Shown: one piece after another, positions 33-47,159 of the stretch
Numbering within the stretch: position 1 is the first letter of the stretch
Layout: every line of letters begins with the position of its first letter
Source: a phage
Direction: 5' to 3' (one strand)
Sequence record: PZ445536.1
DNA length: 64,000 bases
Translations under genes and position numbers: made by a program
Notes under the pieces: generated by a model
The model's database searches: none
Seen by the model: only the letters and a program-made list of their open reading frames with translations
Told to the model about the DNA's origin: nothing

Positions 33-2012
33 ATGACTTTATTATCTCCGGGCATTGAGCTCAAAGAAACTACGGTTCAAAGCACCGTGGTTAATAACTC
101 TACTGGTACAGCAGCTTTGGCCGGTAAATTCCAGTGGGGTCCTGCTTTTCAGATTAAACAGGTTACAAATGAAGTAGATTTAGTTAATACTTTTGGTCAA
201 CCAACAGCTGAAACTGCTGATTATTTTATGTCTGCGATGAATTTCTTGCAGTACGGAAATGACTTACGAGTAGTTCGTGCTGTTGATAGAGATACCGCTA
301 AAAACTCATCTCCGATTGCTGGTAATATTGAATACACAATTTCTACCCCAGGTAGTAACTATGCAGTTGGAGATAAAATCACGGTCAAATATGTTTCAGA
401 TGATATTGAAACTGAAGGTAAAATTACTGAAGTAGACGCAGATGGAAAAATTAAGAAAATTAATATTCCTACTGCAAAAATTATCGCTAAAGCGAAAGAA
501 GTCGGTGAATACCCAACATTAGGTTCTAACTGGACTGCAGAAATTTCTTCGTCTTCCTCTGGTTTAGCCGCAGTAATAACTCTTGGAAAAATTATTACTG
601 ATTCTGGTATTTTATTAGCTGAAATTGAAAATGCTGAAGCTGCTATGACAGCGGTTGACTTTCAAGCAAATCTCGAAAAATACGGAATTCCAGGAGTAGT
701 AGCTCTTTATCCAGGCGAATTAGGCGATAAAATTGAAATTGAAATTGTATCTAAAGCTGACTATGCAAAAGGAGCTTCTGCATTACTCCCAATTTATCCA
801 GGTGGTGGTACTCGTGCATCTACTGCTAAAGCAGTGTTTGGATATGGACCACAAACTGATTCACAGTACGCTATTATAGTTCGTCGTAATGATGCTATTG
901 TTCAGAGTGTTGTTCTTTCAACTAAGCGTGGTGAAAAAGATATTTACGATAGTAACATCTATATCGATGACTTTTTCGCAAAAGGTGGTTCAGAATATAT
1001 TTTTGCAACTGCACAAAACTGGCCAGAAGGCTTCTCTGGAATTTTAACTCTTTCTGGTGGATTATCATCAAATGCTGAAGTTACAGCAGGAGATTTGATG
1101 GAAGCTTGGGACTTCTTTGCTGACCGTGAATCCGTTGATGTTCAACTGTTTATTGCGGGTTCTTGTGCCGGTGAATCTTTAGAAACAGCATCTACTGTTC
1201 AAAAACACGTCGTTTCAATTGGGGATGCTCGCCAAGATTGCTTAGTATTGTGCTCACCACCGCGTGAAACTGTAGTTGGAATTCCTGTAACTCGTGCAGT
1301 AGATAATTTAGTTAACTGGAGAACTGCAGCAGGTTCATACACTGATAATAACTTTAATATCAGTTCAACCTATGCAGCAATCGATGGCAACTACAAATAT
1401 CAGTATGACAAATATAATGATGTGAATCGTTGGGTTCCATTAGCAGCTGATATTGCTGGTTTATGCGCAAGAACTGATAACGTATCTCAGACTTGGATGT
1501 CTCCAGCTGGTTATAATCGTGGCCAGATTCTTAACGTTATTAAACTTGCTATTGAAACTCGCCAGGCTCAGCGCGACCGTTTATACCAAGAAGCTATCAA
1601 CCCGGTAACTGGTACAGGTGGTGATGGTTACGTATTGTATGGTGATAAAACAGCTACTTCTGTTCCTTCTCCGTTTGATCGTATTAACGTTCGTCGTCTG
1701 TTTAATATGTTGAAAACGAATATCGGACGTAGTTCAAAATATCGTTTGTTCGAATTAAACAACGCGTTTACTCGTTCATCATTCCGCACAGAAACTGCCC
1801 AGTACTTGCAGGGAATTAAAGCTCTCGGTGGAATTTATGAATATCGTGTAGTTTGCGATACAACAAATAACACTCCGTCAGTAATTGATAGAAATGAGTT
1901 TGTTGCAACATTCTACATCCAACCGGCTCGTAGTATAAATTATATCCAACTTAATTTCGTCGCAACTGCTACTGGTGCAGATTTTGATGAGTTAACTGGT
2001 CTTGCAGGTTAA
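33..2012 (+). CDS. 18: tail sheath protein (gp18-like), 659 aa
   Basis: ATG at 33 with AGAGGA RBS upstream; length and N-terminus MTLLSPGIELKETTVQ match the T4-type contractile sheath protein. Confidence 0.93.
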   Translation: MTLLSPGIELKETTVQSTVVNNSTGTAALAGKFQWGPAFQIKQVTNEVDLVNTFGQPTAETADYFMSAMNFLQYGNDLRVVRAVDRDTAKNSSPIAGNIEYTISTPGSNYAVGDKITVKYVSDDIETEGKITEVDADGKIKKINIPTAKIIAKAKEVGEYPTLGSNWTAEISSSSSGLAAVITLGKIITDSGILLAEIENAEAAMTAVDFQANLEKYGIPGVVALYPGELGDKIEIEIVSKADYAKGASALLPIYPGGGTRASTAKAVFGYGPQTDSQYAIIVRRNDAIVQSVVLSTKRGEKDIYDSNIYIDDFFAKGGSEYIFATAQNWPEGFSGILTLSGGLSSNAEVTAGDLMEAWDFFADRESVDVQLFIAGSCAGESLETASTVQKHVVSIGDARQDCLVLCSPPRETVVGIPVTRAVDNLVNWRTAAGSYTDNNFNISSTYAAIDGNYKYQYDKYNDVNRWVPLAADIAGLCARTDNVSQTWMSPAGYNRGQILNVIKLAIETRQAQRDRLYQEAINPVTGTGGDGYVLYGDKTATSVPSPFDRINVRRLFNMLKTNIGRSSKYRLFELNNAFTRSSFRTETAQYLQGIKALGGIYEYRVVCDTTNNTPSVIDRNEFVATFYIQPARSINYIQLNFVATATGADFDELTGLAG

Positions 2013-41984: not shown

Positions 41985-44249
41985 TCATAATTTACAGGAT
42001 GAACAATCTTCAGCTTTTGGAGTTTCTATTTCATAATCATCAGTACCAGAACCATCACGGGTATTATGATAATAGAAATTTTTTCCGCCAAAATACCAAA
42101 AATACAAAAGGTCATCAATCATTATTGACATTGGAACCTTTCCTTTTGGAAAAATCTGTGGGTCATAATATGTATTCGCTGAAGCTGATTGACATACCCA
42201 TTTCAGCATAATAGCTACCTGCGTAAGATAAGGTTTATTACCTTTCTTAGCTAATTTCCATGTATAATCATAGAGGTCTATGTTATGCTCAATATTGGGC
42301 ACGACTTGATTAAAGGAGCCCTCTTTTGATTCTTTAACAGAGACTGGTCCACGTGGAGGCTCGATACCGTTTGTACTGTTAGAAACTTGGGAAGATGACT
42401 CACATGGCATAAGTGCTGATAATGTGCTATTACGGATGCCAAAGAGCTTAAGGTCTTCCCGCAGCGACGACCAGTCACAAACGTATTTTGGAGCTGCGAT
42501 TTGGTCAATCTTTTTATTGTACCAGTCGATAGGTAATTCGCCTCGAGACCAACGAGTGTCTGAATAATATTCACAAGGTCCTTTTTCTTTGGCGAGCTTA
42601 ATGGATGCTTTAATGAGTCCATACTGTAATCTCTCAAATAGTTCATGTGTTAAATCGTTAGCATCTTCATAAGAAGCAAAGTTACTTGCCAGCCAAGCTG
42701 CATAGTTAGTAACACCTACACCAAGGTTTCGACGCTTTTTAGCTTTTTCTGCTTCAGGAACTGGATATCCTTGGTAATCCAAAAGATTATCAAGAGCACG
42801 AACTTGAACTTCTGCTAATTCATTAATTTTATCTTGGTCTTGCCAATCGAAGTTATCCAACACAAATGCAGATAACGTGCACAATCCAATTTCAGCATCA
42901 GGGCTATTCACATCATTTGTTGGAATAGCAATTTCACAGCACAAGTTACTCTGACGAATAGGTGCCTTTTCACGAATAAACGGAGTATAGTTATTCGTAT
43001 TATCAATGAACTGCACATAAATCCTTGCTGTTCCTGAGCGTTCAGTCATGAGCAATTCAAATAGTTCACGGGCTTTAATGCGCTTTTTACGAATATTAGG
43101 GTCTTTTTCTGCTGCTTCGTATAATTCACGGAAACGGTCTTGGTCTTTAAAATAAGAATAATAAAGCTCTCCACCCATTTCATGTGGACTGAACAAAGTA
43201 ATGTAATCGTTCTTTCCAAAACGTTCCATCATTAGATCATTCAGTTGAACACCATAATCCATATGACGAATGCGGTTTTCTTCTACACCTTTGTTATTTT
43301 TCAAAACGAGAAGATTTTCAACTTCCAAATGCCAAATAGGATAATAAGCAGTAGCAGCGCCGCCACGAATTCCACCCTGTGAGCATGATTTAACAGCAGT
43401 CTGAAAATGTTTCCAAAAAGGAATAACACCGGTATGGCGTACTTCACCCATGCCAATCTTAGAACCTTCAGCACGAATCATACCAACGTTAATACCAATT
43501 CCAGCGCGTTTAGAGATATATTCAACAATTGAAGCGGAAGCCTTATTGATAGACTTTAATGAATCACCTGCCTCAATAACAACACATGAACTAAACTGTC
43601 GAGTCGGAGTACGGCAACCAGCCATAATAGGAGTTGGCAATGAAATCTGTCGAGTAGATACTGCTTCATAAAAACGGATAACGTGTTTTAATCTATCAAC
43701 AGGTTCATCTTGATGCAATGCCATTCCAATAGTCATAAATGCAAACTGTGGAGTTTCATAAATTTGACCAGTGGTTTTATCTTTAACTAGATATTTTTCT
43801 TTTAATTGCATCGCCCCGGAATAAGTAAATTCCATATCCCGCTCGTGCTTAATTTTTGATTCTAAAAATGTAATTTCTTCTGCTGAATATTTTGACAATA
43901 ATTCAGGGTCGTATTTACCTTCATTTACACAGTAAGAAATATGGTCAATAAATGAACGTGGTTCATACTGCCCATAAACATGCTTACGAAGAGCGAACAT
44001 TAGACAACGTGCAGCTACATATTGATAATCAGGCTCTTCAACCGAAATAGAATTCGCAGCGGCCTTAATGACAATAGTCTGAATATCATCAGTTGTCATT
44101 CCATCACGGAGATAAGATTTAATATTTTCATATAATTCATAAGGATCTACCGATGTTCCTTCAGCTGCCCAAGATAAAACTTTAATAATTTTTTGTGGGT
44201 CAAAGCTCTGAGAAACACCACTACTTTTGATAACATTAATTAATTGCAT
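41985..44249 (-). CDS. nrdA: ribonucleotide reductase large subunit NrdA, 754 aa
   Basis: 754 aa with N-terminal ATP-cone region and C-terminal redox-active Cys pair (CSSCKL). Confidence 0.92.
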   Translation of the reverse strand: MQLINVIKSSGVSQSFDPQKIIKVLSWAAEGTSVDPYELYENIKSYLRDGMTTDDIQTIVIKAAANSISVEEPDYQYVAARCLMFALRKHVYGQYEPRSFIDHISYCVNEGKYDPELLSKYSAEEITFLESKIKHERDMEFTYSGAMQLKEKYLVKDKTTGQIYETPQFAFMTIGMALHQDEPVDRLKHVIRFYEAVSTRQISLPTPIMAGCRTPTRQFSSCVVIEAGDSLKSINKASASIVEYISKRAGIGINVGMIRAEGSKIGMGEVRHTGVIPFWKHFQTAVKSCSQGGIRGGAATAYYPIWHLEVENLLVLKNNKGVEENRIRHMDYGVQLNDLMMERFGKNDYITLFSPHEMGGELYYSYFKDQDRFRELYEAAEKDPNIRKKRIKARELFELLMTERSGTARIYVQFIDNTNNYTPFIREKAPIRQSNLCCEIAIPTNDVNSPDAEIGLCTLSAFVLDNFDWQDQDKINELAEVQVRALDNLLDYQGYPVPEAEKAKKRRNLGVGVTNYAAWLASNFASYEDANDLTHELFERLQYGLIKASIKLAKEKGPCEYYSDTRWSRGELPIDWYNKKIDQIAAPKYVCDWSSLREDLKLFGIRNSTLSALMPCESSSQVSNSTNGIEPPRGPVSVKESKEGSFNQVVPNIEHNIDLYDYTWKLAKKGNKPYLTQVAIMLKWVCQSASANTYYDPQIFPKGKVPMSIMIDDLLYFWYFGGKNFYYHNTRDGSGTDDYEIETPKAEDCSSCKL

Positions 44250-44566
44250 AAGTCCTCAACTTGAAAATCGTCTTTAAACAATCGGTTAACTATATGAGCT
44301 ATTATATCACCATGACACGGCTTTGGTTTACATGTGCATCCTAGCCTCATTCCACGTAAAGGCTCTAAATGTGCTTTAGTTATTTCTCCGGATTTAATTC
44401 GACGTATAAAATCTTTTTTGAATAATTCAATGGCAGCCTCCCGGCTGCCAGCATCTTTACCGACGTAATTTCCCCAAAATGTACCGCGGTGAATATTAAC
44501 ATCAAAGTCGGATTTGTATTTATTCACTACCCGGCATAGACGGCCCGGTTGGTAATAATTCTTCAT
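44240..44566 (-). CDS. hypothetical protein (108 aa; nrdA.1-like)
   Basis: minus-strand ORF overlapping the nrdA start by 10 nt. Confidence 0.6.
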
Positions 44567-44795
44567 ATTGTTTTTCCGTTAAAACAGTAATATCGTAGTA
44601 ACAGTCAGAAGAAGTTTTAACTGTGGAAATTTTATTGTCAAAATACTCACGAGTCATTTTATGAGTATAGTATTTTTTACCATAAATGGTAATAGGCTGT
44701 TCTGGTCCTGGAACTTCTAACTCGCTTGGATTAGGAAGTGTAAAAAGAACGACACCAGAAGTATCTTTAAATCGTAAAATCATATATCCTCTCAA
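44520..44795 (-). CDS. hypothetical protein (91 aa; nrdA.2-like)
   Basis: minus-strand ORF. Confidence 0.55.
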
Positions 44796-44806: not shown

Positions 44807-45667
44807 TTATACCGCCATTTTTCCTTTAATTGGCAGATGAGATACATAGTTGTTAAGAACAAAATTATGAGGCTTTGCAAATTGACTCAACCAAAATACC
44901 TGCGATTCTGTGTCCCATTCATCAAATTCATCTGGAAATTTTAATTGTAATTCGCATAAATCCATAGGTTCACGACGCAAAATTTCTTTACATTGTTCTA
45001 CGTGATTCATATAGATATGAGTATTACCACCAGAAAATATCAAATCTCCCGGAATAAGATTACACATCTTAGCTACAATATGAACTAACGTAGCATATGA
45101 TGCAATATTAAATGGAAGACCGAGGAAAACATCTACCGAACGTTGATACCACTGCAAATCTAAATAGCCATTACGCACATTAAACTGATAGAACATATGA
45201 CAAGGAGGTAATGCCATATATTTAAGTTCAGCTGGATTCCACGCAGAAACAATTTGACGCCTATCATTTGGCAGTTTTTTAATACGATCAACAACTTCTA
45301 TAATTTGGTCTACACCGCCAAAATCACGCCACTGTTTTCCATAAATTGGACCAAGTTCACCGCTATGGTATCCTAAATCTTTTGCCTGATTTTCGTAATT
45401 TTCATCCCAAACTGTTTTGCCTTGGATTAACGAATCGTGTTGAATTAATCGTAAATCATTAACATTTGTGCTTCCTGATAAAAACCATATTAGCTCAGCA
45501 ATGCATGCATTCCAGGCGAGCTTCTTAGTTGTTACTGCAGGAAAACCTTTGGTTAAATCCCAACGCAATTTAGTACCGAACAGAGCAATTGTTCCTGTGC
45601 CCGTTCGGTCATCGGTTTCATAGCCATTTTCAAAAATGTCTTTAATTAAATCTTGGTATTGTTTCAT
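44807..45667 (-). CDS. td: thymidylate synthase, 286 aa, uninterrupted
   Basis: continuous 286-codon ORF; catalytic region LPPCHMFYQF. Confidence 0.92.
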   Translation of the reverse strand: MKQYQDLIKDIFENGYETDDRTGTGTIALFGTKLRWDLTKGFPAVTTKKLAWNACIAELIWFLSGSTNVNDLRLIQHDSLIQGKTVWDENYENQAKDLGYHSGELGPIYGKQWRDFGGVDQIIEVVDRIKKLPNDRRQIVSAWNPAELKYMALPPCHMFYQFNVRNGYLDLQWYQRSVDVFLGLPFNIASYATLVHIVAKMCNLIPGDLIFSGGNTHIYMNHVEQCKEILRREPMDLCELQLKFPDEFDEWDTESQVFWLSQFAKPHNFVLNNYVSHLPIKGKMAV

Positions 45668-45712
45668 TTAGTACCTTATATAAATTATAATACATTTTAT
45701 GAAGCTAAATAA

Positions 45713-46060
45713 TCAATACGGTTTAGCATCAAATTTTCTCTCAATTTCAGGTGTGAAATATAATTCTTTACCGCGTTTGGAAAAACGACCAATAATATGA
45801 TAATTATTCTCATCAAACGTGATATTACCAATATCCATAGCTTTCAACCAAATATCAATATTTCTATCCAGCTTTATGTCAAAATTCCAATACGGAGAAC
45901 TATTACCGAAAATACTGCAAGCGGATTCAGTGAAACAACTACTATAAATCTTGTCTTTAGGAACTACTAATTGATAAACGCCTTTAATAAACTGAGGACC
46001 CTGCCACTTTGGCTGTTTCTCATCTTTTTCTAATAGAATAGGGTAATAATTAAAATTCAT
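45713..46060 (-). CDS. hypothetical protein (115 aa) inserted between frd and td
   Basis: ORF with ATG start occupying a 412-bp interval between frd and td; no motif recognised. Confidence 0.55.
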   Translation of the reverse strand: MNFNYYPILLEKDEKQPKWQGPQFIKGVYQLVVPKDKIYSSCFTESACSIFGNSSPYWNFDIKLDRNIDIWLKAMDIGNITFDENNYHIIGRFSKRGKELYFTPEIERKFDAKPY

Positions 46061-46079
46061 ATTTCCGCCACGCGTTATT

Positions 46080-46906
<827 letters not shown>

Positions 46907-46916
46907 ATTATTTTCC

Positions 46917-47159
46917 TTAAACAGACTTTTTCACAATTTTCCAATCGGCTTTAAACTGCTCGACGTCAGAATGGTAAATCCAAAATCCTGCGCTTTCACC
47001 GTCTTCATAAAGCGGACACCCATCACATTCATCTTCCCATCCCATGCCACGTAAAAGGTGTTCAGCTTTTTCAACAAGTTCAGAATCTTTACCGATGATA
47101 TTAAAATACCATTTACCTCTAACTTCCGAATCTTTGATGCTCTGACGTTGTAATCTCAT
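46917..47159 (-). CDS. hypothetical protein (about 80 aa; frd.2-like)
   Basis: ATG at 47157..47159 with AGGAG RBS (ORF track extends to an upstream alternative start). Confidence 0.55.
   Translation of the reverse strand: MRLQRQSIKDSEVRGKWYFNIIGKDSELVEKAEHLLRGMGWEDECDGCPLYEDGESAGFWIYHSDVEQFKADWKIVKKSV

Follow-up and report, generated by a model that had tools for sequence, protein, structure and literature searches.

A small gene family of T4-like phages is kept between the dihydrofolate reductase and thymidylate synthase genes, a slot that is empty in T4

Between the dihydrofolate reductase gene (frd) and the thymidylate synthase gene (td) of the phage of sequence record PZ445536.1, of which a stretch of 64,000 nucleotides was analyzed (here named the window), lies an open reading frame (ORF) of 115 codons that we call gene A. 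We consider it probable that gene A is a genuine member of a family restricted to T4-like phages and at home in the frd-td slot, that the junctions found in T-even phages are reduced forms of this arrangement, and that the product is likely a non-enzymatic binding module. As a difference between genomes, gene A is an ordinary and already annotated presence/absence polymorphism, in which T4 is the exception among its relatives.

An earlier sequence-only reading of the window had placed the end of frd at 46080, the start of td at 45667 and, in the 412-bp interval between them (45668..46079), a 115-codon ORF with its own ATG at 45713..46060 on the minus strand; these coordinates proved to be exact. 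The start of frd was taken at 46661 (MIKLVFAY, as annotated in T4, teqhal and T6; the mechanical ORF reaches 46688), and its stop codon is the TGA at 46082..46080. The frd stop is followed after 19 nt by the ATG of gene A, whose own stop lies 45 nt before the ATG of td, and two copies of a 9-bp direct repeat, TAAATGAAA, are spaced 416 bp apart. The features of the locus are as follows:

46080..46661, minus strand: frd, dihydrofolate reductase, 193 aa, ending ...ESVYK-TGA (Pfam DHFR_1, E 5e-19)
46078..46086, minus strand: left copy of the 9-bp direct repeat TAAATGAAA, across the frd stop codon (sequence reading)
46075..46083, minus strand: two-codon mini-ORF ATG-AAA-TAA, its ATG overlapping the frd stop as ATGA (sequence reading)
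46061..46079, minus strand: 19-nt spacer between frd and gene A, a decayed frd tail, holding the weak Shine-Dalgarno-like GGCGGA (46064..46069)
45713..46060, minus strand: gene A, 115 aa, RB32ORF229c / PHROG 1928 family, ATG start
45677..45708, minus strand: 32-nt block within the spacer between gene A and td, absent from the allele of phage Shf125875 and carrying the promoter-like site (alignment)
45682..45705, minus strand: promoter-like GCTTCA-N12-TAATTT, with TATAAT two bases upstream of TAATTT (pattern match)
45673..45676, minus strand: Shine-Dalgarno sequence AGGT of td
45662..45670, minus strand: right copy of the direct repeat TAAATGAAA, across the td start codon (ATG 45665..45667)
44807..45667, minus strand: td, thymidylate synthase, 286 aa, no intron (Pfam Thymidylat_synt, E 1e-92)

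Judging from its substitution pattern, gene A is under strong purifying selection. More specifically, the window copy differs from that of T2 by 17 synonymous and 1 non-synonymous changes, from that of T6 by 12 and 1, and from that of Shf125875 by 30 and 10, respectively, corresponding to dN/dS values of 0.01-0.05. Across 64 family sequences, residues W19, G27, Y29, G91, F93, K95 and G97 show no or almost no variation, and the last four of them make up the hairpin motif G91-R-F93-x-K95-x-G97. The AT-rich genome and the weak Shine-Dalgarno sequence could be quoted in favor of a chance ORF in a non-coding spacer, a reading that retains practically no probability, as it is already refuted by the conservation pattern: low dN/dS, conservation of the protein across genera and a confidently predicted structure (pLDDT 93.8) all stand against it.

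Over this region, Escherichia phage teqhal, a Tequatrovirus, shows 100% identity to the window and has gene A annotated as hypothetical protein teqhal_107. The same gene is named "RB32ORF229c" in T6 and "putative homing endonuclease" in phages of the BASEL collection, and one Klebsiella phage record likewise labels its homologue "putative homing endonuclease". The protein matches phrog_1928 (E 3.1e-36 over residues 4-111) and is 97-99% identical to the copies of T2, T6 and RB32; indeed, the hypothetical proteins filed as RB32ORF229c, PHROG 1928 or VOG5130 in T2, T6, RB32, RB51 and others are the same gene as the window ORF, and nothing sets them apart from it. A tblastn search with the gene A protein retrieved 582 phage records, with at least 80% of its length covered in 581 of them. 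Intact copies with at least 90% identity were present in 363 records, including T2, T6, RB32 and RB68, and matches below 60% identity in 219 records, from phages of Klebsiella, Enterobacter, Edwardsiella, Erwinia, Citrobacter, Serratia and Proteus. The family is already catalogued and annotated in hundreds of genomes, without a described function. No paper mentioning gene A came up when the literature was searched for the ORF name, its accession numbers and the PHROG number, and searches for the first description of the T4 overlap and for comparative studies yielded nothing specific to it.

An exhaustive HMMER profile search was needed in order to define the family, as a word-indexed search gave 3 and then 17 clusters. 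Among 1.84 billion representative proteins the exhaustive search returned 54 matches, about 48 of them genuine and all of these 95-148 aa long; the long repetitive matches (P0049, P0061 and others) were rejected as members, being repeat artefacts. The family is small and confined to T4-like phages. Applied to the window, its profile gave a single match, gene A itself (E 2e-26), and no further member elsewhere in the 64,000 nucleotides; in T4 no member was found in the 110.9 kb scanned (best E 0.29).

Gene A in the window, and its homologues in 15 of 15 other phages and contigs examined, follow directly on frd and precede td. Nine of these phages, from other genera or genus-level groups, were inspected: Enterobacter phage MY742, Kanagawavirus PEi26, a Jiaodavirus, Roskildevirus Cronus, Moonvirus Moon, Winklervirus CBH8, a Muldoonvirus, a Marfavirus and a Gelderlandvirus. 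In all nine the homologue comes directly after frd, mostly overlapping the frd stop codon, and ahead of td. The homologues in the slot of these relatives are 25-47% identical to gene A, and two metagenomic contigs again carry one between frd and td. Most of the nine phages have a second ORF, of 113-145 aa, after the first, and since a profile made of only the first ORFs matches these second ORFs (E 6e-14 to 1e-6), we regard them as paralogues (A'). The closest relative of gene A outside Tequatrovirus, at 63% identity, was found on the metagenomic contig L018, where the order is frd, A, A', a 69-aa ORF and td, with a stop/start overlap at every junction. In the relatives, the slot is a cassette of frd, A, A', a 68-aa ORF and td, most of these genes being linked through overlaps of stop and start codons. 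Among T4-like phages in general, the slot holds from 0 to 5 small ORFs, and tandem paralogues of the A family are common.

At the level of the family, the presence of a gene in the frd-td slot is clearly the old state. The sequence-only reading had described the ORF as a lineage-specific insertion into an otherwise tightly coupled operon, which is unsupported as stated: the family fills the same slot in at least 10 named T4-like genera, gene A itself is present in the 363 close records, T2 and T6 among them, and the three most divergent family members found, all on T4-like contigs, are also located between the dihydrofolate reductase and thymidylate synthase genes. The overlap that the same reading had stated for T4 is real. 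In the T4 reference record, frd occupies 145109..145690 and td ends at 145112, giving a 4-nt ATGA overlap, and no gene lies between them there, contrary to an objection that had been considered possible.

The comparison of the frd-td junction across T4-like phages, which had been proposed as a check, revealed three alleles in T-even phages, beside the family members in the slot of more distant relatives. The alleles were defined by a search with the T4 junction as query, by representative records and by tblastn with the 68-aa ORF:

Empty allele, with the ATGA overlap: T4, G2133, F1 and typical Dhakavirus and Mosigvirus, such as Dhakavirus IME08 and VR5 and Mosigvirus JS09; about 60 records match the 44-nt T4 junction contiguously, a count that leaves out Mosigvirus copies, which are too diverged for a contiguous 44-nt match
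68-aa ORF allele, the ORF overlapping both neighbours: Shinka, JS10; about 135 records at 90% identity or more
Gene A allele: this window, T2, T6 and most Tequatrovirus; 363 records

The ATGA overlap of frd and td is present in T4, JS09 and VR5 and absent in the window. The 68-aa ORF of the second allele is the same gene as the ORF directly before td in the full cassette of the relatives. It begins MSNKLKVKDVPNAMALFICRQ... and was seen as a 68-69-aa ORF on L014 (898..1104), L016 (about 895..1102) and the contig L018 (4670..4879); relatives of it at 40-44% identity occur in phAPEC8-like phages, outside the T4 group. A "DUF4858" label on the copy of phage Shinka was not reproduced by a Pfam scan. 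T4 is atypical at this junction, and its textbook overlap should not serve as the standard for frd and td in T-even phages.

The T4 junction, GTATATAAATGAAACAATACC, equals the window sequence minus one copy of TAAATGAAA and all the DNA between the two copies (416 bp), and the difference in span observed in the junction search (about 1016 versus 600) agrees with the 416-bp spacing of the repeats. Read from the sequence, the empty junction is exactly what a single deletion between the two repeats would leave. At the other end of the interval, the 19-nt spacer between frd and gene A aligns with the 3' tails of frd in L018, L019 and Shf125875, tails which overlap the start of the homologous ORF. 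Shf125875 has a run of A that is 2 nt longer, and its frd reads through (...IYKNEIATGGKYEF*) into the start of gene A, like that of L018 and L019; in T2 the run is 2 nt shorter, frd stops prematurely and the ATG-AAA-TAA mini-ORF is the same as in the window, which has lost one further base downstream, relative to T2. We favor reduction over insertion because of this series from Shf125875 through T2 to the window, and because each allele can be derived by one deletion at short repeats. A reading of the repeat at the frd stop as a target-site duplication, that is, as a remnant of the td start that an insertion had left behind, was dropped as decisive evidence, since Shf125875 has the same bases within its longer frd tail (K-N-E-I). 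This Shigella phage is classified as a Mosigvirus; the 3' end of its frd is about 97% identical to the window and its gene A about 88% (DNA), its td was noted as RB69-like, and its mosaic genome has a breakpoint close to the boundary of frd and gene A.

The opposite polarity deserves some weight, although we hold it to be the less probable one: the empty ATGA junction may be ancestral in the T-even group, and the ancestor of Tequatrovirus may have re-gained gene A by recombination with a relative bearing the full cassette, uncoupling frd from td. T4, Mosigvirus JS09 and Dhakavirus VR5 and IME08 share the empty junction despite diverged flanks (the Frd of JS09 and VR5 is at 58-72% identity), and the short Frd end VYK* is common to all T-even alleles except Shf125875. 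Gene A of the window is nearest to the A of L018 (63%), yet its Frd (49%) and Td (78%) are more distant from L018 than those of L018 are from its own relatives. In the trees, A of the window pairs with that of L018 (100% bootstrap), whereas Frd and Td together place the window outside L018 and its relatives (92%), a conflict that suggests an exchange of gene A between lineages, and the divergence of the window from Shf125875 rises abruptly where frd gives way to gene A. Against such a re-insertion, the family sits in the frd-td slot of every other lineage examined, which makes absence a derived state at some level; single deletions at short repeats (of the ATGA type or TAAATGAAA) suffice to obtain all three alleles from one cassette; the order from Shf125875 to T2 to the window is more natural as decay than as insertion; and the same junction can arise repeatedly by repeat-mediated deletion. 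The T4 junction is the reduced state at the level of the family, and probably also inside the T-even group.

Whichever direction the change took, the tight coupling of frd and td known from T4 is broken in the window. The flanking genes are the same in both phages, and the window frd still ends ...VYK-TGA with an ATG across its stop; in T4 this ATG opens td, whereas in the window it opens only the two-codon ATG-AAA-TAA, with td following 416 bp further on (its start lies 412 nt after the frd stop). The frd gene would no longer be coupled to any downstream gene, and the mini-ORF at its stop may be a relic of the former arrangement. Gene A and td would each use a ribosome-binding sequence of their own, with a promoter-like block just before td. 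The AGGT of td lies 5 nt upstream of its ATG. For gene A, a weak Shine-Dalgarno-like GGCGGA is present 4 nt upstream of the ATG. Transcription and translation of the gene A region, as well as the promoter-like site, are inferred from sequence.

The T4 MotA middle promoter has the consensus (a/t)(a/t)(a/t)TGCTT(t/c)A, 11-13 bp, TAnnnT, with the box at about -30. In full, the site before td reads tttAGCTTCA-N12-TAATTT (45682..45708), with an A replacing the T of TGCTT in the MotA box. The 32-nt block resembles a MotA-type middle promoter, which we offer as a lead; the relaxed pattern GCTTYA-N11-13-TANNNT has 14 matches in the window versus 6.8 expected by chance, and a sigma-70-like TTGATT-18-TATTAT overlaps the site. 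No second copy of the 32-nt block was found in the window. Neither of the two spacers showed a terminator or a stable RNA structure, and the block itself has no notable RNA structure.

The profile and structure-prediction searches that had been proposed for the 115-aa protein were performed and yielded, beside the PHROG 1928 match, a confident model and no assigned function. AlphaFold, run on a 64-sequence alignment, gave a model with pLDDT 93.8 and pTM 0.86, which replaced an earlier one made from 18 sequences (pLDDT 70). The gene A protein is predicted to adopt a small, mostly beta-strand fold with one helix, with strands at residues 6-12, 27-34 and 62-64, a helix at 68-76 and further strands at 80-82, 86-96 and 99-104. 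Comparison of the model with PDB structures gave no significant match and no nuclease fold, and the BFVD matches, some of them from Aeromonas phages, were all uncharacterised proteins of T4-like phages. The best structural matches were OB-folds, weak and under the usual significance level; the order of strand, helix and hairpin in these nucleic-acid-binding domains is similar to that in the model. No match was obtained for the protein in Pfam, NCBIfam or PADLOC scans, nor below E 0.25 in a PDB sequence-profile search, and scans of the 64 family members gave no more than singleton matches, none of them stronger than E 0.003. Of the charged residues of the family, K95 alone is conserved.

The invariant residues are only aromatic residues, glycines and one lysine, and for this reason a non-enzymatic binding module is the most likely nature of the product, rather than an enzyme or a nuclease. 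The sequence-only reading had called the function unrecognised, which is fair, except that a few records carry the label "putative homing endonuclease", for which no support was found. A free-standing homing endonuclease, or another self-mobile element, appears very unlikely to us. In its favor are that label, in the records of BASEL-collection phages and of one Klebsiella phage, the presence or absence of an intergenic gene between conserved genes, as is the case for the seg and mob genes of T4, and the match of 1 of 64 family members to Pfam HNH_repeat (E 0.097), which is the sole nuclease-related match. However, no GIY-YIG, HNH, LAGLIDADG or PD-(D/E)xK match was found for the gene A protein in Pfam, NCBIfam or PDB profiles, K95 stands alone as a conserved charged residue in a confident model that matches no nuclease fold, and 115 aa is smaller than the characterised seg and mob enzymes. 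The seg and mob genes are likewise small and come and go between conserved T-even genes, whereas gene A shows neither a nuclease motif nor a nuclease fold and keeps an old and fixed position, stable across genera at 25-47% identity, unlike a recent invader. On the evidence of sequence and model the label appears unsupported, and since it is spreading in GenBank it should not be trusted.

What a binding module would bind can be addressed with more caution. The linkage of gene A to frd and td is so constant that we tentatively guess at a role as accessory partner, either of the phage enzymes for thymidylate and folate or of the dNTP-synthesis complex. This guess is drawn from gene position and residue conservation, and constant synteny may simply mirror a low rearrangement rate of a conserved block of genes. 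A bolder version, which we rate as improbable, would make the A family and its tandem paralogue a dedicated, hitherto unrecognised partner of dihydrofolate reductase and thymidylate synthase with a new fold, tethering or regulating both or linking them to the dNTP-synthesis complex; if true, it would explain why the family, in all T4-like phages that have it, has persisted between frd and td with stop and start codons overlapping, and why the gene never came to light in T4, which served as the model for all the biochemistry. No less plausible than the accessory partner, and equally tentative, is a protein for host takeover or anti-defence that is unrelated to folate and thymidylate metabolism, its position being historical only. 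Such a role would suit a small, phage-restricted, early-region gene that is dispensable (it is absent in T4, Mosigvirus and Dhakavirus), a plastic slot with 0 to 5 small ORFs and a gene tree that suggests exchange between lineages; no PADLOC or other match was found for it, and the deep, fixed position would be unusual, as counter-defence genes tend to be patchy and mobile. The similarity of the model to OB-folds raises a further reading, to which we give little probability, of an OB-like nucleic-acid binder, which might for instance regulate frd/td translation by binding RNA, or bind single-stranded DNA.

The hyperplastic regions of T4-type genomes are marked by the gain, loss and shuffling of small ORFs. 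The frd-td slot is similar to these regions in its 0 to 5 small ORFs, exchange of alleles and deletions at short repeats, whereas the position of the A family varies far less than that of the ORFs typical of them; no repeated promoter/stem-loop cassette was found. Gene A would be dispensable in the laboratory, because T4 lacks it. With a narrow and strongly constrained family, a confident fold that matches no solved structure and a place kept between two nucleotide-metabolism enzymes across many genera, gene A is a reasonable and cheap target for functional study, although as a finding alone it is of little weight.

Several observations were made on the genes around the slot. The td gene is intronless in the window, and those of T4 and T6 carry a group I intron with I-TevI. 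An 81-aa ORF of the RB32ORF231c type, with no Pfam match, lies at 46661..46906 on the minus strand, abutting the start of frd, between frd and the frd.1 homologue; T4 has only a 71-nt gap at this position, which makes it a second difference in gene content, adjoining the first. The frd.1 homologue (46917..47159, minus strand) is a DUF5417 protein, and the nrdA.1 homologue (44240..44566, minus strand) is a DUF4326 protein (E 5e-22) whose homologues adjoin nrdA in distant relatives too. In the teqhal record, the nrdA.2 homologue (about 44520..44783 in the window) is named "putative prohead core scaffold protein" and the frd.1 homologue "putative portal vertex of the head", names that look like annotation-transfer errors.
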